Shown: positions 173 through 33,422 of the stretch, in pieces | How positions within the stretch are numbered: position 1 is the stretch's first letter | How the letters are laid out: every line of letters begins with the position of its first letter | From: Pseudovirgaria hyperparasitica | Lineage: Eukaryota | NCBI GenBank assembly: GCA_010093815.1 | Contig: ML996573.1 | Length of the DNA stretch: 56,372 nucleotides | Reading direction: 5' to 3' (one strand) | The notes under the pieces: model-generated | The model's input: only the letters and a program-made list of their open reading frames with translations | Databases searched by the model: none | Told to the model about the DNA's origin: nothing | Made by a program: the position numbers and the translations under genes

Positions 173-173
173 T

Positions 174-200
174 TCATTAGGAAAGATACAGCGCTCCCAA
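174..200 (+). repeat. Left terminal inverted repeat
   Basis: tcattaggaaagatacagcgctcccaa matches the reverse complement of 27182-27208 (ccattaggaaagatacggcgctcccaa) at 25/27 positions; both mismatches are RIP-type transitions. Followed by short c(c)taagtact repeats. Confidence 0.9.
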
Positions 201-315
201 GTACTCCTAAGTACTCCCTAAGTATTCTTTCATCCCATTGTATCCATCGGGCGGACCTACTTACTATCTATCCCAACGGGACGGCTTTATATAATTTATA
301 CTAAGTATTCCGTTT

Positions 316-360
316 NNNNNNNNNNNNNNNNNNNNNNNNNNNNNNNNNNNNNNNNNNNNN
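316..360. other. Assembly gap (45 N)
   Basis: Run of n in the left subterminal region of the TIR element. Confidence 1.
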
Positions 361-364
361 ACTC

Positions 365-1420
365 TCATAGAATAAATAGTATATAGTATTTTAGCTTCTC
401 TATCTACTCTACCTACTCTATCTACTCTATATACTCTATCTATTTTAATAGAAGTCTCTTTTCTAAAGTAATATCTTTATCTAAAGTATCTCTATAACTC
501 TATATATCTTATTATTCTAAATTATATCTTTAGTATATTTAATTATAGTCTTTAAATTTAATACTAGAAAGATAGTATATAATAGAGAGTAGAGGTTAAA
601 AATTAATTAGACTAGGAACTTAAATTAAATGGTACTATTCTAAGCTCTCTCCGACTATATAGCTATAATGAAATATAGTAGACCTTCCTTTCTTCTACCT
701 TTGGGCGGTGTCCTTTATCTATTAAAAGGTGTCCTTATCTAGAACTACCTTTGATGACCTTTTCTCCCACCAGACACTTCCCTCTATATTTCTAGTTACT
801 ATTTTTATTCTCTCTTATATTATCTGTTCGGCCTCGTAGTAGTCTATATAGTTCCCTAGCTATATACTAATATCCGACTTCTCTTAAAAGTATATACTCT
901 TTATATATAGGTTAAAGACCCGACTTAAACGTCCGCTACTATCTAACTTTATTTTAATTTAAGTATCGGTCGGGGTAGATAGACTACTAGTTAAGGTAGC
1001 TATAACTAGGGATAATAAGTTAGTAATAGACTTATTTATACTACACGTATATATACTATTATTTACCGTTCCCGCGGTTACTTAGAGCGGGTCTATACTT
1101 AATACCTAAGATGGTATAATCTTATCCGTAGCCACTACTAGTAGTATAGAACTCTCACCCATATCTAATAGCGTATAAGATGATTCGAGGCACTTATCCA
1201 ACTGGTTTAGAGTATCCGACTCATCCTTTTCATAGTAGTTAGTATCTATATAGCCTCTATAACTTTAGTATATACTTATATTATCTAATAGCTTAGACTC
1301 CTCGCTCTTATCTAAGTTATCTATATCTACTTTAGAGAAGTTATCTAGGTTATCTTTATATAGGTTTATATATATAGTGTCCGGGTCGATTGGTGTTAGT
1401 ACTATAAATACCAATGCTAT
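365..1420 (-). pseudogene. RIP-degraded ~350-codon ORF of unknown function with an acidic N-terminus (transposon cargo)
   Basis: One frame runs from ATA (probable RIP'd ATG) at 1420 to TGA at 365-367 with only TAA/TAG interruptions. It reads ALVF..PTPIDPDT...DESEE... Confidence 0.5.
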
Positions 1421-1549
1421 TAGCGATTTTTAAATGTAGTTAATACGGTAGGGCGCCTGGTTCGACTATGTTAGGCTTAGCGCTCGCTATTCCTCTATAT
1501 AATTTAGCACGCGATTAGATAAAGGTATATATATATACCTAGTATTAGT

Positions 1550-2900
1550 GGAGAGTATATAAATCTATAGCGACCGAAGAACGAGTTCGGCGCCTACCCG
1601 CTACTATATTCGTTAAGGGCATGCCTTATTATAATATATATAATAGTAATTATAGATAGTGGGATTGGTCGGAATATACTACTATAGTACTCCTTTAATC
1701 TAAGGAATCTTAGGGACTATAGTAGAACTAACTTTAGAGCCTTAATTACTACTAGCCCTACGAACATTTTCCGAGTTACGCTAGTATTATACTAATAATT
1801 AGTAACACGTCTAATACGACGTAAGTAATATACCTTTACTTCTATATACGCGTTATTACGTATTAGGTTACTTATACTAGCTTTTCTCTTCTCGGCTATC
1901 TTCTAGTCCTAGTATTCGGATACTATCTATCTAACTCTAGAGAGGAGTTAGTAACGGAAGTCTATTATATCTTCCTTTACTAGCATAATAATATAGGCGG
2001 GAGGTGTGTTTTATGAATTATAATTAAGGTAGTAGCTACTAAGATTAATATCTCCGGCGGCTATCTAGGCCGATTATACTAGTATCCTAAAACTATCTAG
2101 GCTACTATCTAGCTATATATTAAGGTAATCGAATACCGGTAGTAACCGGCCTAAAAACGTTATAGCGATCGAAATCTCTATTATCGTAAGGTACCGGTCT
2201 CGTTCGTAAGGCTAAAGACTATCTCTATAGGACCGTCTCTTTTCACGGATAGTTAGTTCTCTCTCTACTACTATTTCTCTATCTTCTTCTATCGAGCTAG
2301 ATAGCTAATACGGTGGAGGAGAGGATGTAAGGCCGTTATATCCCCGGTTACTATTATAGTAGGATGTTACCGTGACGTCTAAGCTATATAGGGCGTTACT
2401 ACTATATTCGCTACCGGTATACCTAGACTACTAGGTTATTAGTAGATAAACGAACGCGTTAAGATAAGCTAGGTATATATATATACATTTTTTATATCGA
2501 TGGCTGTCGTGTAAGTCCCTATTATTAATACTAATACGTGTCTACGTTATATCGTATCTTCGTTTATCTATCCCGTTTAGTTTACTATAGTTACTAGATT
2601 ATCTTCTATTAGTGTTACCGCTACGGTAGCTAGATAGTCCCTTAACCGTCTTCCGTGTTAGAGGTCCTATAGAGAAGATATATAAGAGATTAGTAGATAT
2701 TTTTATTAGTAATAGGTCGGTAACCTACTAGGCGATAATATTAGGTAGCGGGATAATAACTAGCTAGTAGACACGATGAAGGTTTAGGCGTAGACTAATA
2801 TAGTGTTTTTATAGACGCGTGATACTTACGCGTTATTATTAATAATTTTAAGCGAGCGTGTATAGGAATTAAGGGGCTAAGAGCTAGGTAGAAGTTAGAG
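1550..2900 (-). pseudogene. RIP-degraded ORF remnant of unknown function, possibly intron-containing
   Basis: A minus frame reads as protein-like (..EEDRE...ERELxIREKRRSYRDSLxPYERDRYL..) and there is a gtaagt donor-like site near 2824-2829. Boundaries are approximate. Confidence 0.3.
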
Positions 2901-3045
2901 GTTAGTAGGTATATATCGGGCTTTCGACGGGCTTACACCTAACTTCTTCCGGTATACGCCTAGAATATCCGCCGTATGCCGTATTATTACCATCTACTAA
3001 TAATTATACTATGGTATTTTTCCTTTATAGTAACTATACCTCGAG

Positions 3046-6000
3046 ATGCCACGGGCCGTAGTCTCCTACTAATACTATAGTAGAAAGATTAGTAGTGTAT
3101 ACTATATAATCTATAGGCACTATAACTCGGAACTATATAGACGAGCACGGCTTGCCGTATTACTATTATTATTATAACTATTAGGCCCGTGGCTACTACT
3201 ATCGACCGGGTTATAGCGCGGCTTTAGTACTTATAGTTATATTAGTTAATGGAACTCTTTAGTTCGCTCTATTAGTGTTTAGCCGTCGAGCGTTAATTAG
3301 GAGTCCGAGTCTATAGAATTAGATACTTCTACTACTAATATTATCCTATATAAAGATACTACTATTTTCTCTAATCCTATTTCGGACCTAGAATCTATGG
3401 ACGGCGTTACTAGTAGCTATAGTACCGATTTAGTATGTTAGTCTAATATATATAGTAGAAATGCTATATCCATGGCGACGAGGGCGTCTAGTACTATATA
3501 TTTAACGAAAACGTTCGAAGAGGAGAGCGGTATATATATTATAGTAGACTAGAGTAGACGTGATAATCCGTCCGATATAAGTATATATAGTCTAGGTTTA
3601 TAGTAGTAACTAATTTAGTAGGCCCGATTCGGTTAATTCGATAGTAAGTTTATAGAGCGCCTTATAATATGGACGAATCGGTTTAGTATTTCGAATATAG
3701 TATATAATGAATTAACTACTATCCTTAAATAGACTTCCGCTATACCCCCCGACCTTTTTATACTAAAATCTAATATCATGCGTAAGTAGTTATTATACTA
3801 CCCTAAAGGGATACCGTACGAAAGTTGGTAGCGTAGCTACGATATATTCGGCACTACTATAGTCGAATACTAGTATAGGGATCCGCTTACGTTAGTGGAA
3901 TTCCTCCTTAGATACTAACCGTTCGCTAGTAAGCTCGTGTTTAAGCCGGTACGATAATTTACTAGTTTAGGCGACCGGGTATATAGTAAAGCCTATATAG
4001 TAGATGGTTAGTAGGATATGCACGCTACTATTCCGGATAGTACTATCGTCGTCTCTATTATTTTATCTTCGGATAAGACAAACCTTACTAACCATAGTAG
4101 TAATAGAGTAGTATAGCTAGTCTACCTATCTATTTATAATCTACCACTAAACGTCCGCTTATCTAGGAGTCTACTATTATTTCTACTACTTACTCTATTA
4201 CTAGTAGTTAAGCTAGAAACGGTAGCGAATCGCTTTATGTTCTATTAGGTTATAAGTAAAGTTCTAGCCTATATATCCGCCCATGATAGAGTCGTTAACT
4301 ATACTAATTATTATATAGCGTTATAGGCTATATAGAGTACTAGAGTATTAGTATTATATACTAATGGCGGCTCGCGTAAGTACTATCCGCGTTTAGCTTT
4401 ATATATTATAGATTTTCCGGAGTAGGTGCTTGTTACGGGTGTATCCTATCGGTATACATGTCTAATATATATAGTCCCTAGTAATAGACGATAGTATCTA
4501 TAAGAAGCTATTACTAGTGTATAGGAGTTCTATATATACTTATCGTTATAGGAATAGGTTTACCGTGTACGTCGCGAGTTAATAACTAATGGCCATGGTA
4601 GTAAGTATACTAGTGGTAAGATAGATAATGGGACGAGTATACCCGGTGTCTTATCGTTTTCGTCGACGTCTTTCGCGCTAGTAGTATAGGGCTATTATAT
4701 TCGCTAATCGGTTAAGAGTCGGTATTCTAGTAGGTGGATAGAGCTATTGGATAATTTCGCCTAGTTACTTACTAGAGTTAATATACACCGCGCGGTCGCT
4801 CCGGATATTCTACATTAACTATATAAGGGTATATTAGAATACACGTTTAATTAGATAGTCTTATATATTATTAATTAAGAGCGTACGGGATATAAGTTAA
4901 AGGGTGTATTTACCGGTATACCCCCTATAGAACGAGTAAAGAAGGTAATCGATAAGCGATTCGCGTCTATTGGGGTATTCGGTCGTTATAACCTACTTAC
5001 GTATATAACTTTAGTAATATAATAGACGGGGGCGATGTTTAAGCGTATGCTAGTAGTGTTTATAGTCGCGTTTAAACCGCTCCTATGTTATAATCGATAC
5101 TTCCTAAGCGTAGTACGGGCGGTTATTAATATATACATGTTAGCGGCGTACTATACGTATAATACATAGACACTAGTATACTTAGAAGAGGCTATATTAT
5201 ACTTAGACGACCTGAAATACTAGTTTATACTATATTATAGAGATAAATCGGAGGATAATCATTTTAACTTTCCGAAGTTCCATGTATTATCGCACCTGGT
5301 CGATGCTATTAAATACTATAGTTCGTTATATCTAATGTCGGTAGAGCTACTAGAGCGATCTTATATTATAGTAAAGAAATTATATCGAGGTTTAAATAAG
5401 AGAGAGACGTTTCTATAGTAGATACTAGTAGTAGATATACACACGATAAATACTAAAATCTCTAGTAGTATAGAGGTAGCGGCTAGTACTAGTATATTAG
5501 TAGCCTCTAGCCTAGAGTAGCTCGATAATACACGTAAGCTAGTCGGCCAGCGGTATATTCTAAAGGAGCCACGCTAGAGTAAACATATACTCTACGTCTT
5601 ATAGAGCTAGAGACTATCTACGTTCTACTAGACTACCGTTAGTGATCTCCACGACGTGTATAGTAGTAGTTTTATATTACTTAATACGGTTACACCCTTT
5701 ATACGTAACTATCGTAATCGGCTTATTAGGGATAATATATTAAAAGATACGAATATCGAACGTATTAAAAAGGACCCTTCATAGGCACGGGTCCTTCCTA
5801 TCTATATATATAAGACCATGTACGTGCCGATACGACTAGATAGAGATATATCTATAGAGGCCTTCAACCCGATTTAGATAAGATATACCCATAACTAGTA
5901 AAAGAGTAGTAAGGCTAGGGAGAATTATATAATAGTATAGGAGTTTAATAAGGGTAGTAACTACCTTAACGGGAAGCGGGTTAGTAAAGTCCGTATATTT

Positions 6001-6372
6001 CTAGAGGTATACGATATAGAGAGTATTAACGTAACTAGTAGTATAGCGGCGCGATTCCTAGGTGCGTTAGTTAAACTACTTAATAACTCGGGTGGAGGTA
6101 ATATCGACACCATTAGTAGCCTTATACCATTACGTATAGCGGGTTAAAGGTCTAGTAATAAGACTTATATAATGGATAGGTTCCGTGTCTACGAGCTAGA
6201 GTATATCCTACGCCCTATATAGATTATATTACGTTAGTTAGTTACGGATAGTTTATTCTAGTTAAACATGTATAGTAATTAGGGGATCTATAACGAGGTA
6301 TATAACCTAGACTTCTAGGCTATAAATAGACGAAACATAACCGTAGTATTAAAACACGGGCGCGTGTCGTAA
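3046..6372 (+). pseudogene. Plavaka-family transposase (~1108 codons) with a putative N-terminal C2H2-like finger
   Basis: Single frame from ATG 3046 to TAA 6370-6372. Reverted motifs YRDPL..VEFLL...PF..ELVF.P, RVYSEAHTADGWWDM, VVPIILSSDKTNLTNHSGD..AWPVYLSI.NL, DFPEQVL, FNFPKFHVLSH and C-terminal N.YSDW..YNEVYD are typical of Plavaka transposases. Confidence 0.9.
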
Positions 6373-6820
6373 GTCTATTACTATCTACCGCCGTCTACCG
6401 TAGTATGCCGGCATATGCCGGTATATAGCGGAAGTTATAGTTTATATATAGTAGCACTCGATAGTCATATCCTATACTAGGATATCTCTAAGGAATAATC
6501 GTAGTTTATTACAATCGGTTCTATAAAAGGCTTATATTTAATGACTATCTATAATTTTAGCTAAGGAGTATCTAGGGATATACCTTCTTATTATCTAATA
6601 ATTACTAGCTAGTATAAAAACTCCACGCCTCTAAAAGGGGTATATAGAACTTAAAGGATCCTCGTTTACGGGTAGAACTAGACATAGATAGTATTAACCT
6701 AATATAGATAGATTATATATATTAATACCCTAAAATCCGAACTATATCTCTAGGTCTACTAGATCTAGCTCGTACCCGATCCTAATGTTTTCGTTATTCG
6801 CGTTTATACCTTATTAGATA

Positions 6821-6948: not shown

Positions 6949-7771
6949 CTCTTACTAGGGAAACGTCTTCCTTAAGTATCTCCCCCTTCTAATATTTCTT
7001 CTTCTCTTCCTTTATTCTTTCCCTAGCCTTATAAGTATAGTTAGACTTATATTACTATATTATTAATATGTACGTTCTTGTATAGACCGTTAGAAACTAC
7101 GGTAACTAGATGTATATTCTTATAATAGATAAATATACCGTACTAATACGTCGCATTATTCGTGTTTAATATAAGAGTTTACTACTATAATTATTTGTTA
7201 TCACGCTCGTCTATCTCTTCTTAACGATAGTACTAATCGATAATAATCTATTATAGAGATAATAGTTAGTATTATATACTTCTCTTAAATATTCGCATGT
7301 TAATATCGCATAAGTATATACTTCGCGGAGGTCCTCTATCCTTCCCTTAAGCTACCTAGACTATCCCCTAATTACTAAAAACTCTTATATCTAACTATTT
7401 CCACTATTTATTCCTCGGTTCTACTCGTTAGGCTTTGAACGATAGCGAACTACGACGGGTTAGCGGTTATCTATATTTCGCGTACGCCGAGTTAGTATGC
7501 CTAAATATAATAGATAATAGTATGTTTATAATAATAATAATAATAATAATATTATATAACTAGGTAGAGTAGTACTCTACAGGCCTATGCCTTCTCTAGT
7601 CTAAGCCACTATGTAAGAAGAAACCCCATAGAGAAAAACTTCCTTATATCTATAACTATATCTCGTTAAACCTCTATTTTATCTTAAGTATATAGCTATA
7701 GGGTACGCCTATTAGCCTATAGCCTATATTACTATTATTTCGCCCTTAGGTAGTACGTATAGATACGGAGG

Positions 7772-7802
7772 TTATTAGTTAAGGGCTACCCTTAACTAAT
7801 AA
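7772..7802. repeat. 31-bp hairpin at the 3' end of the LINE
   Basis: ttattagttaaggg-cta-cccttaactaataa, a perfect 14-bp stem. Confidence 0.9.
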
Positions 7803-10800
7803 TCGGGGTTCTCCCGGGGTTCTTCCGGTATATATCGGGTTACTACCGGCGTATACCGGGTCTCTTCCGGTATATATTTCCGGGTCTACTAGTACTAGAG
7901 GAGTAGTAGATATATAAGTATCTATCGGGAGACGTCCTTAGGGTACTTATTAAGCTATTATATAATATCTAAAGTCTTTATAATATAGATAAGCTATTAC
8001 TATTATATATGGAGGTTAGGGTATATAGCTAGATAGTAGCGTATTATACCTCTCCGGCCGTACGCCTTATACTATAGGGAGGTATTAGAAACGCCTCTCT
8101 TATAGATATAGTATAGAAGTCCTATAGCGCCCGTTCGGGCTTAGATAAGTATAGATACTTAGGCTTTCGTTAGCCCTTTATACATCTATTTACTTAGTTT
8201 CTTCTATAGCCCTCGAATCTACTCTAGATATCTATTCTACTAGGAGATCTAGTAGGTATAGAGTGCCTCTTTCTACTTATCTTAAGTCCACGACCGCATG
8301 TTTTTTATAAGTTCTTAAAGGCTCTACTAGTCTAGAAGAGCGTCCGGGTTATCTCGGACTTCTTATACTACTTAGCTAGAGTCGGCTTCTATTAAGTACC
8401 TATACCGTATTCGATTCCGGCCTATATATAGAAGTACGCGGTAATATATACTAATTTATACACATAGCGCGGCGAAAGTATATTCTACGTTTTCTATACG
8501 TTCCTATACTTATTATTTAGTAAAGTATACTACTCTCTATATCTAGTAGAAGTTATATATACTTATAACGTCTATCTTACGTCGTAGTAGCACCGTATTA
8601 GTAGCTTTATATACGCCTAATATAAGACGGAGTATACGGTTCTATATAGATTCGAGCTTTATTCGCCTAGTCTATATAAGGGCCGTATACTAGTACTTAT
8701 GTCCGTACGTGAAGGCGGGTCGTACTATAGATATATATAGCTGGCGTGCCTTATCCCGGGCGGTTCCCTACGTGGAGACTATAATCTATTATATAGCGGC
8801 TTCTGCCTAGAGGGCCCTAGAGACGGTATATACCACTTATGGTCCCTATTTAAGCTTACTATCTAGTATAACTCCGAGCGCGTGTATACTTTATACTAGT
8901 AGTTCGTTAAATACGTCGATTCGGGGGCGTTATTTGTCTTCCCTAGTTACCTATTTCCCTTAACGGTTAATAAAGTATATAAGCTAGTATTTCTCTAGGG
9001 CGAACTTTACTCCGTGGCGTTTTACCTACTAGAGGCACCTCTTATAGTCCTATTCTAGTCGTCTATACGTTCGGTTAGTATTATTATTAATAGCTAGGAG
9101 GTATATGTTATCGGCGTATCCGACTACCTCTATATACTTTATTTCTTAAAGAAGGTCTACCGTAAAGAAGAGGAATAGAATCGGAGAGATAGTGCTCCCT
9201 TATGGGATACTATATACTATCTCTTTATATTCGCTCTAGTACCTAGGGATATATATCTAAGTTATTCTTCCTATAAGGAATAACTATATAAAGCGTGTAA
9301 TCTATTCTAGTATTCGTCTTATCCGGAGGTTATAAATAAGTCTTATATGGTTTATCTTATTAAACGCTCCGGCCATATCGAGGGAGAGAAGCAATACTAC
9401 CCATCCCTACTTCTATACAGCCTAGACGACTTCAATAATATATTAGATAGCTATTATTAGGGAGCTATCTATCTTTACCTTCTAGTTCGGAGGGAGGAGA
9501 TTATATTCCTATACCGTGGTGCTTATCTTCTTCGCTACCGTAGCCTCTAGTATCTTATCTAGGTAGAAGAGAAGGGCGATTAGTCTCTATCCCTTTAGGG
9601 AGTTAGGGCTCTTTCCTAGTTTCGGGAGTATAATAGTATAGGCGACTTAGAAGCTCTAGGGGTGGTACCCCTACGTGACGCATGCTTAGAATATACGAGT
9701 AATAAGTAGTAGGGTCGCTTTTATAGTACTTTTTAGGCATTAATTTAGAATTCTATCTAGTCTAGGTACTTTATCATTTAGGAGTATCTTAATAATATTA
9801 AGTATATCCTCCTCCGTAACTTCTTCGGGGATGTCTACTACGTATAGATATTCGGCGCCGTGAACGTCTAATAGGTCTACTAGTTCCGGGAGAGGGAACA
9901 TAGCCTCCTATAGGGCCTTAGTTTTCTTAAGGCTTATAGAGTATATTCTCCCCTAATGTATTAGGGGAGGCATGAGTAGCGGGGGTATCGGAGTATCTAC
10001 ACCCTTAGCCTATTTCGCTATACGCTATAGCCCTATTACGTATCGTGTCTATTAACTAGTAATTATATACTACTATTTACGCCTTTCGTTATGGAGGACT
10101 TTGTCGCGTTATTATATTACTTCCTTCTATTCTTTCTATAACTCGGGTATTCTCATACGGTATACGCGTGTGTATAGCCTTCGGGCGTCTTATATACTTT
10201 CCTATACTCGAGGAATCCCCTTTGCTTCCAGGGGCCGGTATATTCGGTATAGTACATGTTTATTTCTCGTATTCTAGTATATTTATAGGAGTATCTATAC
10301 GGCCTAGTCTATGGCTAGATTATTAGATATATTAACTATAGAGGGATCTAGAATCGCCGATTCCAGGTCCTTTAGGTACTTTTCCTAGTTAGTATTCTTC
10401 TATATCTATCGTCCCCGTTATTTATTCGGGGTATATATATTTATTACGGTTTCTATACATTTATAGTCGGAATCCGTCTATACCTAGCTTAGGCGGTAGT
10501 ATTAGATCTAGTAACTAATATACTCTATGGCGAAGGTAAGGTTAAGCGTGGACCCGTCTTCGTCCTATTTATGTTTTTTCTATATAACTTATTCTATAGA
10601 TATAAGTAGGTATAGGAAGTCGTGGTAGCGGGTACGTAGTTCCCTTACTCTAAGTTCTTCCCTTACTACGGCTAGGCCTCCCTACTATTAGTAGTAGAGG
10701 TTAAAGTCTCCTAGGAGGATGTGTTACCCTAGTTCCGTAGTACCCTTAAGCATCTCGTCTAGTATAAGTACACGTTATTAGTTATATATATTATATATAT

Positions 10801-11090
10801 ATAGGGGGCCTATATCTATTTATAGATGTAGTATTATCCTAAGGTTATCGCGCTCGGTATATAACTATAATAAGAGTAGTATTAATCTATGAATATAGAA
10901 GAGGACTCGTCTTTCTAGTCCTAGAGGGTGTATAGTATAGTATCCGGGGTATATGGTTGGTTTACTCGTCTAGTAGTGTTTATAGAGTTCCTAGATAGCG
11001 AGTATTATGGCCCCGGTCTCTTCGAGGAGCGTCGCCTAGTTCTCTCTTTTATATTATACGTTTACCTATATAATTTAGAGTATATTCTAG
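7790..11090 (-). pseudogene. LINE ORF2 (APE endonuclease and reverse transcriptase)
   Basis: Reverted motifs LQIMQANV..ILAIQEP (~11085-10985), HILLGDFN (~10700-10724), GIPQGSTISPILFL (~9170-9211) and VVGYADDTYLL (~9095-9128). Confidence 0.9.
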
Positions 11091-11099
11091 TCCCTTATT

Positions 11100-12512
11100 A
11101 GGTACTAGAGAGTATATATATCTATATACTTATTCCTTAGAGGCGCGACTATCCTCGCGCGGTAGCGGCTTTAACTATACCTTTTAGTCGTCCTATCGTC
11201 TTCGGGATAGTCTACTATCCCGCCTAACTATCTTCTAGAGGGGAGGTTAGGGGTATTATAAAGGAAGGGCCCGTAGTAGGTATTATATTCTATAACTATC
11301 TCGCGCCTCTCGCTTTTATCGTGCGAATATATTCTATAACCTATTTACGTTTTATGTACGTTAACGACCACGACGGGTGTTTCCCGTTATAGTTTAAATA
11401 CTATACTATATCTCTATTTCTTAGTCCGTCTCCTCGCGGTTTATAAGGGCACTCCTAGGTAGCGTAGTCCCTACGGCACTATCCGCACTTAGTCTTCTAT
11501 AAGTACCTTTATATAGTATATCTATACCCTTAATAGTTAAAGCACTATATTATTACCTATGCTCTATCCTATGGCTCGGCCATAAGGAGCTCTCCTTCTA
11601 CTAGGAATCCCTTCTATATAATGCGTTATACGAGGGCGGGGTCTCGGAGCTCTATAATTATAGTAGAGTGTTTTTTCGCCGTCGTCTTAATCGCCTATAG
11701 GTTCTTCTACCACGCTTTTATAATCTTAATCCCTAGGTATTTTCGCGTGTTAGATTATTCTATACGCGTAATATTCTCCGCTCCGATAGTCTATCCCTAT
11801 ATAGATACTATATATACTATAATCGGGTATATAGCTACCCTAATAGACGCGCCGGGGAAGATACTACCTATCGCGTTCGGATCTCGTAAGATGTTTTACT
11901 ACGTAGTATTTATTATAGTAGTAAGTACTACCCTACCTAGCGTAACTTTAGTAGCCACGACGCTTAACTATATTCCTTTCTATTCGTTAATCTTATTTAT
12001 AATTTCCTTTAGGGATACCTATTAGACCTACGCTAGTATATTCTTATCCTAGATTACGACACGTATACTATATACTCTATCTATGGTCCTAGTAGTCCTT
12101 AGTGCGGTAGCTCCGGGTATTACTATAATCTAAGCCTACGTGTTAGGGCGCTTACCTTAGAATAGCTCTTTCTAGATTCTCCGTAGGCTGGCTTCTATTC
12201 GGTTAAGTCTACTACTAGGTTCCTCTCGTGGCGACTTTCTTTCTTCCTCTATAATTCCTCTTAGGTTCCGGATAAGGTTCCGGAATATATAAAGAAGAGT
12301 CTTCTTTCCCTTCTCGGCGTCCCTCTCTATATATATTACCTAGTATTTAATTTTATCTAGGAGGGTCTCCCCTCTTGGGGTCCCCTCGGTCTAGGTTATC
12401 TATAGCGCTTCGCACCCTTAGTTAGTACCTATAATTTAGATAGGTGTCTAGCTATCTATATTAATGTCGCTATATAGCCGTTTCTACCGTACTAGTGGGG
12501 GTATATCCGGCA
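11100..12512 (-). pseudogene. LINE ORF1 (gag-like, zinc knuckles)
   Basis: ATG near 12512, a coiled-coil-like segment, and a C-x2-C-x3-H-x6-C-like knuckle (reverted C.NCNGKHPSWS.TC) at ~11357-11400. Confidence 0.75.
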
Positions 12513-12548
12513 TCTACCGGGGTATTATAATGCCTAAGGCCGCTATAG

Positions 12549-15860: not shown

Positions 15861-18800
15861 GCTTATAATACGACTACCGTCTCGACTAATAATAAACTAC
15901 TCGTCCTTAGTATACTTACTAGTAACTACCGTCCTAACGACGAGTATAAACTTAAGAAGGTCCAAAGTAGTAAGGCTCCCGTTCCTACTTACGCTACCTA
16001 TTAGATCTCTCTTATATAGGGCGATCTATAGTTAACCTTTAGGAATGTCTATGGTATTAGTAGAGAAATAGATGGACTTAAGTAGGAACAAGCGAAAACT
16101 CAAGCTAAGCTTAAGCTAGTAGTATTTAAGGCTTATAGTAAAGGTCATAGCTTCGAAGAGTCGATTAGTTATATATATAGATTCCTTGAATTCCCTAAGT
16201 ACCGCTCTTAGATTAAGTTATATACTCGCTTCCGATGGATTAACGAAGGGAAATTAGTATCCTTAATAAGCTTACTCCGCTTTAATCGTACTAATATCCT
16301 TCTATTATCTGACTACCCTACGGTATAGATCTTTAAGGTTAAGTAAGTAGACGACTTTATTAAGTATTTTTCTAAACTTCCTAATCTTATTATAAGCGAA
16401 GCGGATAAAGCTAATATACTATATATTAATACCGGCCTCTACGAAGACCCTCGCGACTTTTAGGTTATTAAACTTATAGCTAGCGAGCTTCTTAGTATAG
16501 ATTTTACTATCCCATTATATGTTAGACCCGATATAATATACGAACGAGTGAAGTAATTCTTTAAAGATCTAGGTACTTATACTATAGTTCGTATCTTGCT
16601 ACCGCTATATAACCCTATGGATCTTACCGGCTTTAATAATAAGCTTAAACTAGAGAGCGATCTAATTAATTCATAGTATATAGGAGTTACTACTCCCTAT
16701 ATATAATACAGTATAATAAGTAGGCCGGACACTTAGCCCTAGATCTCTATTCCCTACCGCGAGTCATTCGATAAGAAATTTAACTATCTAATATATATTA
16801 CTATGAGTACCTTATAAGACGAATAGGCGGATCTTCTATTATCCTAATTCTAAGACGTTACTATCGGGTATATCTAGCTCTTAGGTGTTACTCGGGTGCT
16901 CTTAGCTATCGTCTATCCTATCGATGCGAAAGGATTCTATCGCATAGAACTAGGTAGTTATGGGTACCTTAAAGTAGATTTAAAGGATTATAATAACGAC
17001 GTATACCGCTTTAAAGTCCTTTAATTTCGCCTAGGCGTCCTTCTATTCGAATGCCTCGCTCTAAAAGTCTTTAATAAGGTTAGGCGTCCTTCTAAAGCAC
17101 CTAAGGTACCGATTATATTAATAGATACGGTTACTAATGTAACTTAAGCTCGTCCTAAACATTTTATTCGGACTAGCGATACTAGTTTAAGTACGATTAG
17201 GTCGTCTCTTACTACGCTCATAGGGTTCACGGACGTTCTAGCTTTAGTTAGTGTATAAACCTATAATAAGCTTACTAAGTAACGCATTAATACGTGCTAG
17301 AAACTAATCTACCACGCCGTGTAAGCTCCTAGAGACGACGGCGTAGACGACCACGCCGCTTAGGATGCGTTTAATGCGATGGTCCCTAATGTTATCGTAG
17401 ACTCGGTGTCTATATCTCTAATGTATAGGTCCCCTAACCCTAACGACGAGATTCTAGATTATAGTATAGAGCCTTAGGATACCCTTATTACTCTTTCTAA
17501 ATTATCTATATCCCTAGATAATAATAAGGACATGAATATAGAATATAGTCACGATGTTATTAGCGACGAAGGTTCTATTACTAGCCCCGTCGCCGATATA
17601 TATACACTTCTAATATTATCTAAAGTCTACTCTAGTGTTCTATCCCCTTTACTACCCTCCGTATAGGACCTAATACTTAGTAATAACTACCTGAATCTTT
17701 AACCCGTCGACTATAACCGCTACGTTAAAGATTATAAAAGATTCCACGATCTCTAGAATATTATACGTTTAGAACTATCTCCCTAATACTAGTATATCTA
17801 TATATAGGCGACGGACGTACTTAGAGCTTAGTTTCTACTTCACGGCTATGGAGGAGCTAGGAAGAGCCATTTATGGCTTCGTCTACTACTGGCTATACTT
17901 CTAATTAACGAAATAAACGGTACTTCTATTATCGCTTATACTACTAAGGTAGTTATCCTATCTAGTGATGTAATAGCGCACCTCCCTACGCTAGGTTCTA
18001 CCTAAATATATAGGATATATATATATATTATTATCGGTCTAACTAACGAAACCTACAACAACGCTATAAGAAAAGCATATAAATATATAAGTAATATATT
18101 TACTCGCTATAAGTCTCTAAAGATACTAGTCGTTCTTCGAAGATACCTCGAAGCCGTTAATCGAGAGGTTTTCTTTACTATAGCTAGACTATCTCGTTAC
18201 GGCGACCCTCTTATCGGGCCAACCTAGAACGATATAATAGGCGGTACTATCCTCGCGTAAGCCTAGGCCGACTATAGTAAACGACCATCGGAATATAGTA
18301 CGGATCCCCGTGCTCGTCTATAGAAACTATATACCGGTTACGTTACGCTCGAGGTTGTTAGACTCATTAAATCTCGATACTAATATAAATAGATCCCTAA
18401 GAATTTCGAGAAAGAAACGGCTTAGCTATTACGCGCTATCTATAAATATTATACTTATAATAAGGATATGTCTAAGGAGGAGTATAATAGGATGAACGAG
18501 CTATACCTCGCTACCTAGGATCTAGTTACTATCCACGCCTAGATTCATGTAGAGACCCTATATATTATAAACATCGCTAAGGTAGCCCGTAATATATATC
18601 CGATTTTGGTCGTAATAGAAGAGGCTACGTATATCCTTAAAAGTAATACACTCGGGATTATCGTTAATTATACTACTATAGAATGGTAACCGACATTTAT
18701 TTACGTTGGCGACCCACGCTAGCTCGATACCTACTAGCGTAATAGTACTAATATATAGGCCGTAAACTAGAGGATCTCCTTTATAAAGCGCTAGATATAA

Positions 18801-19856
18801 TATAGTTTCCCGACTACTCGCCTTACCGAGTTAGAACGCTTAGTTCCTAGAATAATAAACGTTATATTACTAATTACTTACTTGGGTAAGCTAACGACCT
18901 CGCCCCGTATAATAAATGATATCGATATACTACTCGCAGAGACCGTTTAATAAATATTTGGAATCCGTGGCTATTAATATATTATATACGCTAATGTTAA
19001 CGGGGATCACGCGTACACGGTGAATAACTTAATATATAACATAGACTTATTACGTTTTACTTAGTGGATTATTACCGAGCTCTTCCGTCATAGCGTCGTA
19101 CTCGATCGCGTGCTCTATATTTCTATATATACCGCCTAACGTAATCTGTTTAAAGGGATAGTTAGGAACTCGCTTCTAACTATACTTGCCGTAGCGGATA
19201 AAGCTCGATTTAATGCCCTACCTAAGCCGGTATAGAAGCTTGTCTAATGGCGTTCATAGGACGGTTCTTAGGGTTATAATAATAATATAGTCCTTATTAA
19301 CCCGGTCTAAACCAATCGCTTCGGCTTCCTCTCGGAAGTAAACCGTAACGTCGTTACTATTACGCGCGCTAAATAGATAATAGTTATTATCGCTAACTTC
19401 GTATCTCTTAAGAGGTAGAAAGTCCTAGACGGTATACTCGGCGAGATATAGAACAAGTGCTCTAAGATTCATGCGATATACACGTGCACGACCCCCGATC
19501 TAGATGGCCTCCCTCTACTCTCTAACATGTCTAATCCCTAATATGGTCGCCCTATACTTAGTATTAGAGAGAGGGGAGAATAAAGCGATTAATAAACTAC
19601 CGATGGTACTAAGCCCCGTAAGCTACTAGTCTACTATAAATGTAATATTAAAGGATATAAGTCTATTAAGTATCTAAGAGGGTCGACGCTTATATATAAT
19701 AACTATTAGGACATCAGCTATAAAGCTAATGTTTACCCTAAACCTAAGACGCTTACGGGTACGTTTTACTATAATTATAGAACTACCAATTATACTTAGC
19801 GTTATTATTCTAGCCGTACTAAATTACTAGCACGTATAAATAGTAATAATCTAGTT

Positions 19857-19940
19857 AATACTACTAGAGCTAATACTACTAGAGCTAATACTACTAGAAC
19901 TAATACTACTAGAACTAATACTACTAGAGCTAATACTACT
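19857..19940 (+). repeat. 15-bp tandem repeat (~5.5 units) in the helicase C-terminal tail
   Basis: taatactactaga(g/a)c repeated. Confidence 0.9.
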
Positions 19941-21339
19941 AACGAAGTAACTACTAGCGGCTAGGACGATAGAGACTACGAGGATGCTAACTAAGACGGC
20001 GGTTTTACGATATATAAAGACATGGAAGTCAATTGGTAATAGTATACGATTAGACTCACGTGTTAGGGCTACTTAGTCACGGCTTCTTAGTAAGTATACC
20101 TCTATATCTATTTTAGATATAGTTACGATATTCTACTAGGTAGATAGTTTAGCTCTATTAAAGACCTATTAAGGGTATTTCTATTACGTCTACTCTAGTA
20201 TAGACGCGCTATTAGATAATACGGCGCCACTAGACACGTTAACTAGTACCCACCGATTAAGAAATAAACATGATTCTATATCTACCACGAGCCCCGGCCT
20301 AATAACGTAGGCTTCCTTTAGTTATCCCCTTTATACTTTTAAAACTACTTCTAGCCTTTATATCGGGAGATATTACTATCTAAAGAGAAAATATAAAAAA
20401 ATATACGCCCTAATCAAAGCCTCTATCTTTAGACTTTAACTATAATATATACGGGATATAGTAAACCTAAATATCGCGTACTTTAAAAGCATGGAAGAAT
20501 ATAATACTCGAATATAACGAAATATAGGCTCACGATACTCGGAGAGTACCTAGGGATAAGCATATGAATATAAAATGGGATAAGACTAACGCGGCACCTC
20601 GTATATGCGTAGCTATATACCGTTCTAGACGTAGTCGCCTACGATATAACATTGCGAGATAAGAATCATGGCTATCCAATTCTATTAAGGGTATTAGACG
20701 ATATAAAGTGAATAATTATACGCCCGACCACGCTACGCTAAGTTACGTGTATGTTATAAACGCGTGTTCGAGGAATAATAAGGATATAAACGAGGTTCAC
20801 CTAGTAGGTACCTCGTTATTCCGGCTTCTACCTCTATCGTCCGACCTATACCTCCGTCTTCCTCGCGCCTATAATATACTACACGTATACTATATAATTA
20901 GTCCGTAAATTATAAACACTATATTAACTATACACGTTAACTATATACGATTAATATATCGAATCCGATTCTATAATAAAGTAACCGTCCGAATATAGTA
21001 ATTACTATAGTACTACTTCGTATCTTAAGCCTAGATATATAAGTAAAGCGTAAAGCTATAGAGGCGCGTATAAGGTAGCTATATATAGAAGTATATATGG
21101 CTACTCTACTCGTAGACCATGGGTGTTGAACTAAGAACGAGCTCGGCGTAAAAAGAGCACGTGAGATTATTAATAAGGTAGCGGGCGAATTCCTAGTAGT
21201 ATAGGAAAGAGTAGTAGAGTATATAGAGATAAAGGCGCTATACTATATCTACGACTAGGTATATACTATAGTATAGAAAACCATATATTATAGAAAAACT
21301 ATCTCCGAGTGTAAGAAGAGGCGTGTAATTATAGCCCTA

Positions 21340-21460
21340 TATTCTACGATCTTATAATCCCTACCTATCACGACCTTATAACCTCCGCCTATCGCGACCT
21401 TATAACCCCTACCTATCACGACCTTATAGCTCTCGTATACTACGACCTTATAGCCTATAC
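21340..21460 (+). repeat. 24-bp degenerate tandem repeat (~5 units) inside an unidentified cargo ORF remnant
   Basis: Unit ~ctacctatcacgaccttataaccc. Confidence 0.75.
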
Positions 21461-22949
21461 TCGTAGCGGTCCCATAGTCTACTAACGTATATACTATAAG
21501 AAAAATTAAATTTATAATTAGATTTAACGATAACGTATTCCTCAAAATACTAGTACCTACGTCTAACTAGTAGAAAGACCATAGCGACGCTTCGTGTATT
21601 AATTTAGTAGTATTTATACGGCGAATTAGAATCTAATACGTAATAAAGACTAGGAGGGCACTTGACTAGAGCCGTACTACCATGCATTCTATTATACTAG
21701 TAGTTAAGTATACGATAAGTAAAACGGAACTAGAGGTAGATATTAGATAGCTCCTATAGTTAGTAATCGAATGTATTCTAGAATATAGTAATAGTATAAT
21801 ACTTCTCGGCCTTAGATAGGATATAGATGGTATACCCGAAGTAAAATAAAATATAAACCAGCGACTAACACATGATAGTATAGACGGCTATATATAGGTT
21901 ACGCTCGAATAAATCCGTCCCTCCGTCCCTAATACTATACTCGCTATGATTAGTATAATAATAGTAATAGAAAGCTACCGTCTATGACGGTAGAGATACC
22001 TACGGAGATAGTATTATAGGTAGTAGATAGTATTACCTAAACGACTTAACCCTTCCTCTAGCGATACTATATATACTACTATCGGTACCCGGGAAGTTAT
22101 AAGACCAATCTATAAGCTCTAAAGATAGTAACTTCGAAAGCCTTAAAAGTACCTTAGATATAGAGGATATGGATATCGCTTTTAAAGACTAATAGAATAA
22201 TAAAAAGGGTGCTAGAGGTAGTAAGAGTAGCGTGTGTACTTGGCTAAGGCGATACGATCCGACGTAAGACGGCTTCTATCTACTATATATTAGTATATGC
22301 CCGATTCTACTAGCTATATAACTATAGCGTATATATTTAGTTAAGACGTTATAATACCGGTATAAGCCGGCGTCTACCTAGTTCACGTCGGGATACGCCC
22401 GGTCCTACTAGCTATATTATTACTACGACTATAATTATATAAGATCTACTCTAATAATTAAATATTTACTTATATACTTTACTTCCTCCGTACTTATTGA
22501 AATTATATTATAATCGCTAAACGCGGTGACTTAACTTCTACCGCCTAAATCTAGTTTTCATATCTTGTCGCCATTAACGCCGTCTTACTACCTATGGCCT
22601 AAGTCGCATATAGGAATAGATAGGTATAACGAGAGTTACGACTATCCTAGTTTAACTACCGGCCATAGAATGGCTAACCGTGACACGTATATACGACGTG
22701 CGGAGGCCTTAAGCGTTAGCGCCCTCCTACCTTATATCTAGTATCTCTAAGGTCTATATCTAATACCCGAAACAAGTCATGATATATATAGGGCTACTAT
22801 TATTAAGATAGTAAGTAAAGAAGTAGTAATAGAGCTTAAAACTAGTAGTATAGATACTACTATACTCTATAGAATAGTTAAGGAAACCGTTACTAGAGAA
22901 TTCAATTAGTATATCGCGGCTATAAATAGTAAGTTAGTACCGATGGTTA

Positions 22950-25900
22950 CGACCATAGATATAACAGAGGCTAAACTAGATATAGATACTATAGGCATAG
23001 GTACGTAGACATAGTTACCGCTAGAATATAAGAAGAAAGATAATATAGAAGATGCTAAAATGGAAGACGACGTAGCTAGTATACTTAGACATATATATAT
23101 ATATACGGTCCTAGATACTAATATTAGAGTAGTATCGAAGATAGGTGCGGCTATAACCACCGACATAGATAATCTACCTATGAATGTCGTCGTGCCTAGC
23201 GAAGCTTATCTACGCGTAAACATACTAGCCATAGAGATATAGTTATAGTTACCGCCGGAATATACGGAGAAAGAGAATGTAGAAGATACTAAAATGGAAG
23301 ACGACGTAGCTAGTATACTTAGACACATATATATATATATAGTCCTAGATACTAATATTAGAGTAGTATCGAAGATAGGTACGGCTATAACTACCGACAT
23401 AGATAATCTATCTATGAATGTCGTCGTGTCTAGCGAAGCTTATCCACGCGTAAACATACTAGCTATAGAGATATAGTTATAGTTACCGCCGGAATATATA
23501 GAGAAAGAGAACGTGGAAGATACTAAAATAGAAGACGACGTAGCTAGTATACTTAGATACATATATATATATATAGTCCTAGATACTAACATTAGAGTAG
23601 TATCGAAGATAGGTGCGCCTATAATTACCGATATAGATAATTCCCCCACGAATGCCGTCGTGCCTCTAGATACCGGCGAGACTTATCTATAGCTACTAGA
23701 AATAAAGAGAATACTCTCGGATAATATAGTAAACCTAGTCGATTCTCCGAAACGCCTAAAACTAGAATATATTATACTACTAGATGTCGACCGGTAGACA
23801 CGTGAAAACCAGGAACTATTCGGGTTAGTAGATAATTTATATAGTAGATATATATTAGATAGTACATTAGCGAACGACCTTAACTTTAAAATTCTTTCTA
23901 TAGACGACGACTCTAATAGAGACGAAGTAAAGCTAGATATAGAGGACTTAATTCCGGTAGATAATAATGTTAGTACGAAACTATAGAAAGCGTAAGTTAT
24001 ACTAAGAAGTAAGTAGGAATATACACTACTATACTAATATACCTATAGAATATTCGCCGTTAATAACTCTAATAAAGTAGTCTAAGCTATCTCTTATTAT
24101 ACGGAAGAGATGCGGTTACTTACTATAAGTATATTTAGGCTTACGCTAGACAACCTAATAAAGGAGTTCGGCTATATACCTACTCTATATCTAGCCTTTA
24201 GTATAAGTAGGTTATATAGGCCATGGGCCAGCTAGTTACTCGCGGTAGTTACTATATTTAAGTAGTAGGCGGGTCCGTAGAAGTGCTAGATCTTAGTAGA
24301 TAGTCTAGGGCTAGGGAAGATAATCGTGCTTATAACGTTCATCCGCCTCGCGTTTTATTAGGACTTTCTACGCGATAATATAGAACTTAATCTAGGAAAT
24401 TATCTATAACCGACTTAAGACTCGGGCATAGATAGAAAGTGCCCGATATAATCTCTATATCCGATTAAATGTCCGTGTAGCTAGACCGATAATTTCGTCC
24501 ATGTGCCCCGCCTTTAAGGACTATTTATACTATACTACCTAAGGTCCCTTCTAATAGCGCATTGGCCGTAGCGCTTTAAATAGATGTATAATAATACGGA
24601 TAGTATATTTACCGATTAAATCGATAAACGGAACCTAATAAAGATAATAGTACGGCTAACGTACTCGAAAACCCTTACTAACGCCCCTAGTATCCGATAA
24701 TTCTCGTATATAGACCGATAATACTTAGCTAAGAGATACCTACACCCCGAATGGGAACATAGCGTTAATATTAGTAATACTACTAAATTCGAGACCGACG
24801 AGGAGTATATCGTTAGAGCATGGTCGATTCCCGTTAATAGAACCGCTACTACCGAATTTCCGTCGCGATACACGAAGAACTATATAATCTATAGCACCGT
24901 CTAGAGTATAGAACCCTAATATCTTAAATCTTTTAAGGGACGCGTGGTTATAAGAGTAAAGAGGGCGAAACAATTTAGTACTAAAAATACTTAAACTCGT
25001 GAAGTAGCATTCCTTAGTATATTAATAGTAGACAAGTTCTATTCCGTAAAGAACCCCGATATAAAATAGTATAAATATACGATATATAATACCCTTATAT
25101 TTAGTATATAGGTTAGTGTAACGCCCCTCTCGAATAGTCTAGTAGATATTCTAGCGGCTATCGAGGTAGGTGCTCTAGATAAGTTACCTAACTACGTTAA
25201 CGATAATACTACTAAAAGGGTATTTAAGAGCCTATAGAATAAAACTATAAGAAAGATTATTATAACGTGGTCGAATAAACTCCTTAGTTTAATAAAAGGT
25301 AAGTCGGCGGACACGATGGCCGCGATAGTCCGTAGGGCATTAGAAACCATAGAAGGTAAGCGTATACTACGTATGGTAGCCGATTAGTATTTACTATTCA
25401 TCCTATAACGGGGACTACTAACTAAATAGTTTAATGGAGAGGTATATCTATCTACGATATTAAAGCTAGTAGTAGAGTTTATATCTATCCCGGCTATAGA
25501 ACTAGAGAAGATAATCATATAGTTATATAAGAATAGAGGTAGATAGTTTAATAATCTATAGCCTAACGGAACGCCGCGGGACTCGTAGATATAATCTACC
25601 GCCTAGAGTAAATCGAAAGGGGGTACCGGGTCCGGGCTTAACGTATACTACTATTAGGCTAGACTAGCTACTACGTGTATACTACTTATATACCTTACTA
25701 ATAAAAAGATAGAAGACGAGTAAATTAATATTACGCTTACGCGTCGGAGGGATAGTAATAATAGTATACTAAGTAAGATAATCACTAATCCCGTATGCGA
25801 AGCGCTTCTATAGCTAGATAAGGCCATGCGAAAGAAGATAGTATCGCTAGCTAATAAACACGCTTTAAAGGTAAACTAGATCCGTAACTTCATTAATAAT

Positions 25901-26520
25901 AACGTTTATAATGAAAGTACTAGACGCGCGCGATAAACATCCGCCAACTACCCGGAGAAAATCGTACTCGTATATACCGTACCGGTAAGCTTAATATTCC
26001 TATACTTAGTAAGTGTTTACACTACCTACTAGTAACGTAATTCACTAATATATATAGGTACTACGTCCATATATATAAGCGAAAATATTAGTATATTTAC
26101 TAGCCAGCCTAAGTACGTCCGAATTAAATAAGGTATATAGATTATTTAGATCGACTAAGTCGGATTCTCCGTGTATTCTACTAGTATTAGCTTCGTAGGT
26201 CTACGAAGGATAAGACCTAATAGTCGCTGGTTTTATAGTGTTAGTAGACTAATACTTACGTAAGGAGACGTGGCCGTAGGTAAGTATAAGATATTATCGC
26301 CATAGATAATATCGGCCTATAGTATATGCGTATACTTTAATTTTAGACTATTTAGAGGTTAAGGCTAGACTCGCCGCGTTAGGTAAGGTAATCGAAAGCA
26401 CGAGGATATAAGCCTTAGACCTAGGAAAAGAAGATATAGCTACGGTAGAGATAGCTATATCTAATATACTAGTAATAGGCGTACGCTTTAATCCCATAGA
26501 GATATAGTAGTATAGAAGTA
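22950..26520 (+). pseudogene. SNF2/SWI2-family ATPase with N-terminal 78-aa repeats
   Basis: Same-frame reverted motifs ILAD.PGLGKTI (24290), P.SLL..HW, LIVDEFHSVKN (25022-25054) and SATPLSNSL. After a probable intron (gtaagt at ~26009) comes QAS.RCHRHGQ.RP.VYAY.L (~26278-26340). Ends approximate. Confidence 0.82.
22990..23665 (+). repeat. 234-bp tandem repeat, ~3 copies
   Basis: at(g/a)gaagacgacgtagctagtatacttaga at 23060, 23294 and 23528. Confidence 0.95.
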
Positions 26521-26649
26521 AGTAAGGTAGTTAGTTAATTAGCTTCTAAGAGACTAGATAGCATGGTAGTATAAATACAAACCGCTGTTTACTCGTGATT
26601 ATATATCTATATATATCTATACGTGAAGAGAAATAAGATATTTATTCTA

Positions 26650-26970
26650 TACCGTTATATAGTAGGACGTTACTATATATGCCGGCATATAATAGAATAT
26701 TCCGACATGCGCCGGTATATTATAGGATATTTCTAGATACTTAAAGTATAGTCGTAGTATAAAGTAGTATTACTATTATATACCGGTATATAGTAGAACG
26801 TTACTATATATGCCGGTATATAACGGGATCATGTTCCGATATACTATATGCCGCTAGTATATTATAGAATATTCCTAGATACTTAAAGTATAGTTATAAT
26901 ATAAAGTAGTATTACTATACTATACCGGTATTTAGTAGAACGTTACTATATATACCGGTATATAATAGGA
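26650..26970. repeat. Right subterminal tandem repeat (131-142 bp period, ~2.3 copies)
   Basis: acgttactatatat(g/a)ccgg at 26667, 26798 and 26940. Confidence 0.85.
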
Positions 26971-27004
26971 TTAAACGTTTTCTTAACGTTCGATAGAACG
27001 ATTC

Positions 27005-27180
27005 TAAAAGAACTAGGACGGCTCTAGAAGAACTAGGACGACTCCGGGAGGACTAGGACGACTCTAGGAGGATTAGAATAACTCTAGAAGTACCGGGACG
27101 ACTCTAGGAGGATTGGGACAACTCTAGAAGTACCGGGACCCATTTGGGATAACTTTAGAAGTACCGGGAGACCTAGAAGC
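27005..27180. repeat. Right subterminal ~20-bp tandem repeats next to the TIR
   Basis: Variants of actctaggaggactaggacg and actctagaagtaccgggacg. Confidence 0.85.
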
Positions 27181-27181
27181 A

Positions 27182-27208
27182 TTGGGAGCGCCGTATCTTT
27201 CCTAATGG
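27182..27208 (-). repeat. Right terminal inverted repeat
   Basis: ttgggagcgccgtatctttcctaatgg. Confidence 0.9.

Positions 27209-33381: not shown

Positions 33382-33422
<41 letters not shown>

Follow-up and report, generated by a model that had tools for sequence, protein, structure and literature searches.

The question raised by this locus is whether the AT-rich, heavily mutated DNA that fills the left half of a 56,372-nucleotide stretch of Pseudovirgaria hyperparasitica (contig ML996573.1 of assembly GCA_010093815.1; hereafter the window) once moved as a single unit and, if so, to which kind of mobile element it belongs. An earlier note, made from the letters alone, had proposed one mobile multi-gene unit of about 22 kb net and a candidate undescribed class of giant cargo transposon. 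According to our analysis, positions 175-27207 are likely to be one copy, killed by repeat-induced point mutation (RIP), of a large, autonomous-type Plavaka transposon (CMC/CACTA-like) of 21,710 bp net that carried helicase-type cargo. There is good support for the reading as a mobile unit in the left 20 kb, and it is plausible for the remainder, where the interval from 20 to 27 kb would belong to the same repeated unit. The element is an unusual member of a known transposon group and not a new class; what is left as unusual is its helicase-type ATPase cargo, its size and its RIP-active host.

The element is delimited by two terminal inverted repeats (TIRs; Table 1), whose 26-nt arms are 96% complementary. 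The search of positions 1-28500 returned 298 inverted pairs of at least 20 nt, of which the TIR pair is one; among the 25 pairs listed, most were 70-84% complementary and one short palindromic pair of 31 nt reached 100%. The TIR pattern was matched exactly twice in the 56-kb window, once on each strand, as compared to a mean of 0.00 in 100 shuffles, which bears out the matching TIR pair claimed previously. When C/T and G/A differences are allowed, the pairing extends outwards to 172/27210. Subtracting the nested retroelement described below, together with one copy of its target duplication, from the tip-to-tip length gives the 21,710 bp, in agreement with the size first estimated. Subterminal repeat arrays had been claimed as well; they are present at the right end, as repeats of about 130 bp and a 20-bp array of 6.8 copies, and at the left end only short motifs are seen before a gap of 45 N at 316-360, which lies 116 bases inside the left TIR. 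A transition-tolerant alignment of the left end (172-315) with the reverse complement of the right end (26950-27210) scored 90, against 47.5 ± 6.0 (maximum 68, n=200) for shuffled sequences, with the largest share of this score coming from the TIR itself.

The same two boundaries are marked by base composition. GC content is 0.25 in the flanks and 0.35-0.39 throughout the element interior, and the ratio (CpA+TpG)/(ApC+GpT) is 0.05-0.10 in the flanks as compared to 0.19-0.27 throughout the interior, both stepping at the TIRs and both being uniform from one TIR to the other. By these indices everything between the TIRs is heavily mutated by RIP, as had been stated before, and each of the three long frames described below carries 55-90 stops. 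All frames being destroyed by RIP, this copy is dead and immobile by itself. It sits in an older and more strongly mutated repeat (GC 0.25) that is derived from a retrotransposon. The CpA-type RIP of the host would be typical of Pezizomycotina.

The identity of the element is given by its transposase. The six frames of 1-28500 were read with stops as X and scanned against Pfam, and a continuous frame of about 1,030 codons matched the Plavaka transposase family PF18759 with an E-value of 1.4e-29 (103.8 bits, cut-off 26.3; core at 3856-4485), confirming that a full-length Plavaka-type frame is present. Its 55 stops are made up of 43 TAG, 12 TAA and 0 TGA, and the lack of TGA is what CpA>TpA and TpG>TpA mutation predicts. 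Of 7999 candidates scored in a homologue search, 41 were relatives at E<=1e-5, all of them with PF18759 and 22-30% identical to the window frame; 38 of these are named and belong to genera which we take to be Agaricomycetes. In an alignment with 14 homologues, the window residue is identical in 74 of the 194 near-invariant columns, and these include the invariant D, D and E at alignment positions 258, 371 and 685 (nucleotides 4072, 4411 and 5353), an H(3)H pair at positions 661 and 665, near-invariant in the 14 homologues, and one conserved C at position 387. From the description of the family, these D, D, E and H residues are presumably the catalytic ones. Where the window differs from a near-invariant column, the difference is explainable by C>T or G>A alone in 28 of 120 cases, against 11.6 ± 3.0 (maximum 23, n=1000) in the control; RIP accounts for part of the divergence, and the remainder is real distance from the basidiomycete families.

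Besides the transposase, the Pfam scans (E<=0.01) returned only AAA_12, DUF6532 and RVT_1 inside the element, with no second transposase or recombinase. A TET/JBP domain, which is known as a cargo of fungal Plavaka elements, was not found in the element either. The DUF6532 domain lies in a RIP-broken frame with 30 stops in 467 codons (1300-2700). At least four further ORF (open reading frame) remnants had been counted previously; DUF6532 can be named among them and nothing else can, as a scan of 12857-15552 and 19550-22602 in all six frames recovered no family at E<=1, a single match at E 0.25 being no better than chance. Mapping of stop density was also tried as a frame finder and proved unhelpful, favouring antisense low-complexity frames.

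The second long frame encodes a superfamily 1 (SF1) helicase, as had been proposed. AAA_12 was detected in it at 32 bits (cut-off 27), and this is the one of the two profiles suggested for checking the claim that was recovered, AAA_11 being undetected in the frame at E<=1, with motif-like strings upstream seen by eye only. A search of the PDB with the helicase core returned 9 sequences at E<=1, one of them unrelated; the best was ZNFX1 (E 4e-4), DNA2, SEN1 and NAM7 came next with E-values of 0.07-0.5, and the frame is accordingly described here as Upf1/ZNFX1-like. No protein homologue was found with the whole frame at E<=0.001, nor with words from the helicase core at E<=1, in a search whose word index probably fails on sequence degraded by RIP.

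The third long frame probably encoded a SNF2-like ATPase, as judged from residue motifs and faint similarities. Strings resembling motifs I, II and III of the SNF2 family are found from 24308, 25031 and 25121 onward, in one frame, in the right order and with the usual spacing between II and III. Of 200 sequences simulated from the window with a first-order Markov model, none showed this joint pattern, the patterns having been chosen after the sequence had been seen. A 357-residue piece matched SNF2-rel_dom at E 0.095 (12.2 bits, under the 24.9 cut-off), ranking behind a spurious AKAP28 match at E 0.02, and when the PDB was searched at E<=10, three of four matches were to the SNF2 ATPase CHD1L (E 0.76-0.80), aligned at motifs II-III. 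The long 1367-residue frame had no Pfam match, a 767-residue frame had 0 PDB matches at E<=1, 1.84 billion representative proteins gave 0 matches at E<=0.001, and Helicase_C was not matched at E<=10 in 25850-26401. The SNF2 ATPase of the earlier note is weakly supported, by the sub-threshold SNF2-rel_dom and CHD1L matches and the motif strings, which are in accord with one another, and finds no backing in the thresholded Pfam, PDB and protein searches. It is worth noticing that both ATPase frames open with in-frame tandem repeats, an 18-bp unit of 17.8 copies (encoding a hexapeptide) at 15535-15855 in the helicase frame and a 234-bp unit of 2.8 copies (encoding an acidic unit of 78 residues) at 23011-23665 in the SNF2-like frame.

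Between the transposase and the helicase lies a nested retroelement, which is a later insertion and not part of the Plavaka transposon. Its reverse transcriptase domain was recognized as RVT_1 at E 3e-13, and with no long terminal repeats (LTRs), a 19-bp target site duplication (TSD) and a simple-repeat 3′ tail it fits the description of a non-LTR retrotransposon, although an endonuclease domain was not found in it. A diverged partial copy of this retroelement, 67-73% identical and with its segments in a different order, is located at 32319-34361.

The question of mobility was addressed with contigs of two public runs (X1 and X2), which were aligned to positions 1-20000 of the window at >=80% identity. 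The pieces aligned numbered 33,829 for X1 and 14,115 for X2. For X1, about a third were >=99% identical to the window, about a third 95-99% and about a third 90-95%, with 2,600 below 90%, and transitions made up 1245 of the 1261 variable places. So many pieces differing by transitions mean that positions 1-20000 are multicopy and that the copies have diverged as RIP does. Outside the retroelement, summed contig depth, which is to be told apart from copy number, stayed at 19-26 thousand in all but one of 22 bins, in the transposase, the middle region and the helicase alike; the exception, at 35 thousand, was the bin 12674-13340, which overlaps the retroelement end. Over the retroelement itself it rose to 140-300 thousand, about ten times that of the Plavaka element, which marks the retroelement as a member of a much more abundant family. 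Judged by summed depth, the helicase region goes with the transposase region and not with the nested foreign insert. Moreover, about 20 distinct contigs carry variant letters at places 4615 and 4972 in the transposase and likewise at 17338 and 17789 in the helicase.

Joints within the contigs are relevant to mobility as well. Three contigs begin at 12838 and are preceded by letters matching 7492-7514 with 2 transitions; other copies therefore exist without the retroelement, with the transposase arm running straight into the middle region. Four contigs follow the left flank up to 173, continue with 9 other letters and then with 21 letters identical to 27210-27230, so that the host repeat also exists without the element, an empty-site-like piece of evidence for the whole 27 kb as an insertion. 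The 9 letters are neither a target site of 2-3 bp nor derivable from the tips of the element; they could go back to a deletion of the target, to the footprint of an excision or to sequence peculiar to a paralogue. A model that took them for a 9-bp TSD was rejected, because the bases concerned pair ungapped within the TIR. In each run there is one contig in which place 176 continues into retroelement sequence of the other strand, a joint compatible with another insertion of the same terminus. A weak joint, carried by a single contig in each run, leads from 3087 to 19689 and leaves out 16.6 kb; its shorter side has 21 letters, and it could represent an internally deleted, non-autonomous derivative. 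For 1-20 kb, the earlier view of one mobile multi-gene unit is upheld by the multiple, transition-diverged copies, by the equal depth of transposase and helicase, and by the flanks that are joined without the element.

Table 1. Features of the Plavaka element and of the remainder of the window (positions of the window; strand as + or -, a point where none applies).
Feature	Position	Strand	Basis and details
Left terminal inverted repeat	175..200	+	Inverted-repeat search and pattern count; tip 5′-CATTA
Left subterminal region with short repeated motifs, ending at the N gap	201..315	.	Sequence and alignment
DUF6532 domain in RIP-broken frame	1591..1995	-	PF20149, E 1.8e-6, 28.4 bits, cut-off 24
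Plavaka (CMC/CACTA-like DDE) transposase	3301..6400	+	PF18759; one continuous frame, 1033 codons, 55 stops
Left copy of 19-bp target duplication	7515..7533	.	Exact match to 12838-12856
Nested non-LTR (LINE-like) retroelement, 5304 bp	7534..12837	-	RVT_1 8933-9598; trinucleotide tail 7534-7553
Right copy of 19-bp target duplication	12838..12856	.	Exact match to 7515-7533
Internal region without recognisable family	12857..15251	.	Six-frame family scan
SF1 (Upf1/ZNFX1-like) helicase	15252..19550	+	One continuous frame, 1433 codons, 90 stops; AAA_12 at 18816-19397
Internal region without recognisable family; short tandem arrays 19856-19957, 21329-21452	19551..22534	.	Six-frame scan and repeat search
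Probable SNF2-like ATPase frame	22535..26300	+	1255 codons, 59 stops; sub-threshold matches, motif-like strings
Right subterminal repeats	26643..27139	.	Repeat search: ~130-bp units 26643-26971; 20-bp array x6.8 26994-27130
Right terminal inverted repeat	27182..27207	-	Inverted-repeat search and pattern count; tip TAATG-3′
Glycosyltransferase ORF in unmutated island	34775-35950		
Protein-kinase gene in second unmutated island	~53.8-55.0 kb		

Several observations weigh against taking the whole interval as one Plavaka transposon with its own helicase-type cargo. The two runs come from a single sample, probably the source of the window assembly, and are not independent of it; their copy evidence covers 1-20000, the SNF2-like frame and the right end lying beyond it at 20001-27207, and the equal depths are sums over contigs and not copy numbers. 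Among the contigs shown, none bridges the gap at 316-360 between the left TIR and the rest, a repeat search found no second copy of the element in the 56-kb window, and the 9 letters of the flank-to-flank contigs are not derivable from the filled site (173/174, 27209/27210). Nor is a clean target duplication of 2-3 bp visible beside the CATTA tips of this copy. Next to the left tip stands TT and next to the right tip GA, a mismatch even when RIP is allowed for, in a single copy with RIP-mutated flanks; with the limits of the element set at 172-27210, it is CT and TT that adjoin it, and these match given one C>T, under the same restriction. The SNF2 assignment fails every thresholded test. Finally, in a metagenome scan that gave 516 Plavaka relatives, of which 80 loci were kept, tblastn with the accessory frames of the window found no match at E<=0.01, and helicase, SNF2 or DUF6532 domains were present in 0 of the 22 large neighbour ORFs. 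These ORFs, from 14 loci and outside the transposase match, had been chosen as the larger ones from 125 ORFs of at least 180 residues in 21 loci of at least 9 kb; the domains that they did contain were of retroelement, F-box, fungal-kinase and RabGAP type. Helicase cargo is not a general trait of Plavaka elements.

This silence of the other loci would be expected if the locus were a composite, in which a smaller Plavaka element with the TIRs, DUF6532 and transposase had received, by insertion or capture in this copy or its sub-lineage, a block with the helicase and the SNF2-like frame, making the two ATPases mere passengers. The published fungal Plavaka cargo is TET/JBP and not helicases in the available text of PMC12730594, and the copy evidence stops at 20 kb, both of which fit such an origin. 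We nevertheless consider it unlikely. The summed depth of the helicase (15.3-20 kb) equals that of the transposase, while the nested element, a true late arrival, differs about tenfold, and the copies that join 7514 directly to 12838 run on into the middle region. GC content and RIP indices do not change on passing from the transposase arm to the ATPases, the interval 12.9-26.6 kb is not enclosed by any other strong pair of inverted or direct repeats, and the Pfam scans revealed no other transposase or recombinase domain. The frames themselves, intronless and longer than 1,200 codons, together with the copy abundance that the helicase shares with the transposase, favour ATPases that served the element over recently captured host genes.

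A different objection concerns the assembly, since a join across 316-360 may have attached the body of one element to the left TIR of a different one, in which case the 27-kb unit would not be real as drawn. The gap is indeed only 116 bases from the left TIR, contigs that reach 315 run on with letters differing from those of the window from 361 onward, and a multicopy family favours scaffolding errors. Yet the four contigs mentioned above run from the left flank (to 173) into the right flank (from 27210), which places the two ends at one and the same position in a single older repeat, as a single insertion predicts, and the composition steps at both TIRs. A misjoin at this gap, against which the earlier note had cautioned, is for the first of these reasons unlikely, although without a bridging contig, and we regard an artefactual unit as very improbable. 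We give even less credence to a new class of giant cargo transposon comparable to the Starships. A net length of 21.7 kb, at least four genes including two ATPases, and a RIP-active host, where the known giants are Starships, had made this view attractive. However, the transposase is clearly that of Plavaka, the genes are only a handful and none is recognisable as beneficial to the host, no tyrosine-recombinase family appeared in the Pfam scans, and giant Plavaka and En/Spm elements with 3-5 genes have already been described, as far as the available text of the sources goes (bioRxiv 10.1101/2025.02.11.637652; PMC6431247). In fact, delimited, gene-carrying and giant Plavaka elements are in print (PMC12730594, PMC8290104, PMC12581995, bioRxiv 10.1101/2025.02.11.637652, each in its available part), so an undescribed class is not supported, nor is the statement that Plavaka is usually discussed as genes and not as delimited elements, in view of the TIR-delimited elements in the first three of these.

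Returning to a RIP-killed Plavaka transposon with helicase-type cargo, its life may be pictured as follows. The transposase would have cut the element at its 26-29 bp TIRs and pasted it elsewhere, probably helped by the binding of repeated subterminal motifs, by analogy with En/Spm. At least three further genes would have been carried along, for the DUF6532 protein, the Upf1/ZNFX1-like SF1 helicase and the probable SNF2-like ATPase. Perhaps the two ATPases served the element itself, either in handling chromatin or silencing or in dealing with a very long donor DNA, which is our best guess as to their role. The family would have multiplied to many copies, which RIP would then have destroyed. 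More tentatively, and at somewhat less than an even chance, the window may stand for an undescribed ascomycete Plavaka family with a fixed module of two ATPases, the Upf1/ZNFX1-like SF1 helicase and an SNF2-like remodeller, each with a tandem-repeat N-terminus, plus DUF6532. Thus equipped, the family would have amplified to dozens of copies of about 22 kb before RIP inactivated it, and its module would have counteracted chromatin- or RNA-based silencing. Such a module would be a parallel to the TET/JBP genes of basidiomycete Plavaka and to the methylase and oxygenase genes of red-algal Plavaka.

The implications are threefold in kind, touching transposon biology, fungal genomes and annotation. 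Large DDE transposons with small fixed accessory sets are recurrent, examples being the TET/JBP of fungi and the methylase/SET and oxygenase genes of red algae, and such accessory genes are thought to help the elements in evading silencing. If our reading is true, a Plavaka with helicase-type ATPases adds a different kind of accessory module, and the Starships are not the sole multi-gene mobile units in RIP-active ascomycetes. For annotation, the element accounts for about 27 kb of otherwise unreadable AT-rich sequence, and it carries a warning that fragments of helicase or SNF2 genes left behind by RIP in such regions may belong to transposons instead of being decayed host genes. With every frame destroyed, this copy is silent on function, and its value is that of a pointer to a family whose intact members deserve to be looked for in relatives.

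Outside the element, the fungal DNA of the window is again AT-rich and mutated by RIP, except for two unmutated islands. The right flank contains an RT_RNaseH_2 / RT_RNaseH domain (Pfam) at 28001-28276 on the minus strand. A second RIP-mutated repeat block extends over 36000-54000 between two intact host genes, with a Tf2-1-like integrase SH3 domain at 43080-43358 on the minus strand and with the direct repeats 35934-36040 / 53229-53335 (89%) and 40711-40943 / 47870-48102 (95%). Concerning the metagenome loci, ORFs of the fungal-type protein kinase family PF17667 were found directly upstream of Plavaka matches in two of them (L064:3204-4616 and L065:8035-9432), a further locus (L068) has an ORF at the same coordinates as the L065 kinase ORF, and one database protein (P0039) combines PF17667 and Plavaka domains. 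This kinase may be a recurrent companion gene of Plavaka in basidiomycete-like elements.

It remains to set the element beside known systems. It resembles maize En/Spm (CACTA) in its short TIRs, its subterminal repeat arrays and its more than one gene product. In En/Spm the subterminal repeats are bound by the element's second protein. The window element differs from En/Spm in that its tips are not CACTA, the 3-bp TSD is not seen and its size is much larger. With Starships it shares being a large mobile unit in a fungus of the RIP-performing kind, whereas it has a DDE transposase and clear TIRs, is far smaller, carries no evident host-benefit cargo and, in the six-frame Pfam scans of 1-28500 at E<=0.01, returned no tyrosine-recombinase family of the Starship captain type. 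SNF2 helicases have been mentioned in the "Inton" and "Enton" transposons and RecQ in Academ, in one sentence citing Kapitonov et al. (PMC3627910), beyond which our literature search on these names found no description; these are likewise DDE-type transposons with a helicase-type accessory protein and belong to other superfamilies. A literature search for helicase-bearing EnSpm or Plavaka elements in fungi found no description, which is not proof of absence.

The nearest comparison is with other Plavaka elements, as they appear in the available text of the papers cited. Plavaka with TIRs and 2-3 bp TSDs have been delimited in Agaricomycotina, where PlavakaA has TGT..ACA tips and a 2-bp TSD, PlavakaB has CATCA..TGATG tips and a 2-3 bp TSD, and some PlavakaB carry TET/JBP (PMC12730594); TIRs were also characterised for Plavaka of Marasmius (PMC8290104), and in the ascomycete Tuber a 2-bp TSD and 5′-CATAC tips were described (PMC12581995). 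The window element has in common with these fungal elements the PF18759 transposase, the DDE triad, the H(3)H pair and TIR tips starting with 5′-CA (PMC12730594, PMC12581995). Its tip CATTA differs from the CATCA of PlavakaB by one C>T at CpA, a RIP-type change that has to be assumed at each end, and from the CATAC of Tuber at two positions. The fungal elements have a TSD of 2-3 bp, unlike the window copy with none visible, and some of them bear one extra gene, TET/JBP, in contrast to the SF1 helicase, the probable SNF2-like ATPase and DUF6532 of the window.

As for size, giant Plavaka families of 17.4-19.1 kb with three accessory genes (PAG1-3) make up a third of the genome of the red alga Bostrychia; the PAG products are a DNA methylase/SET protein, a ParB-like/2OG-oxygenase protein and one unknown protein, and tandem repeats lie beside the accessory genes (bioRxiv 10.1101/2025.02.11.637652, available text). 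En/Spm families of Chondrus, as cited in the available text of PMC6431247, measure 16-20 kb and have 4-5 ORFs. In these parts of the two sources helicases are not reported, in contrast to the window, and the hosts belong to a different kingdom; yet the window element and these red-algal transposons are alike in their great size, their small fixed set of accessory genes, their tandem repeats and their massive amplification.

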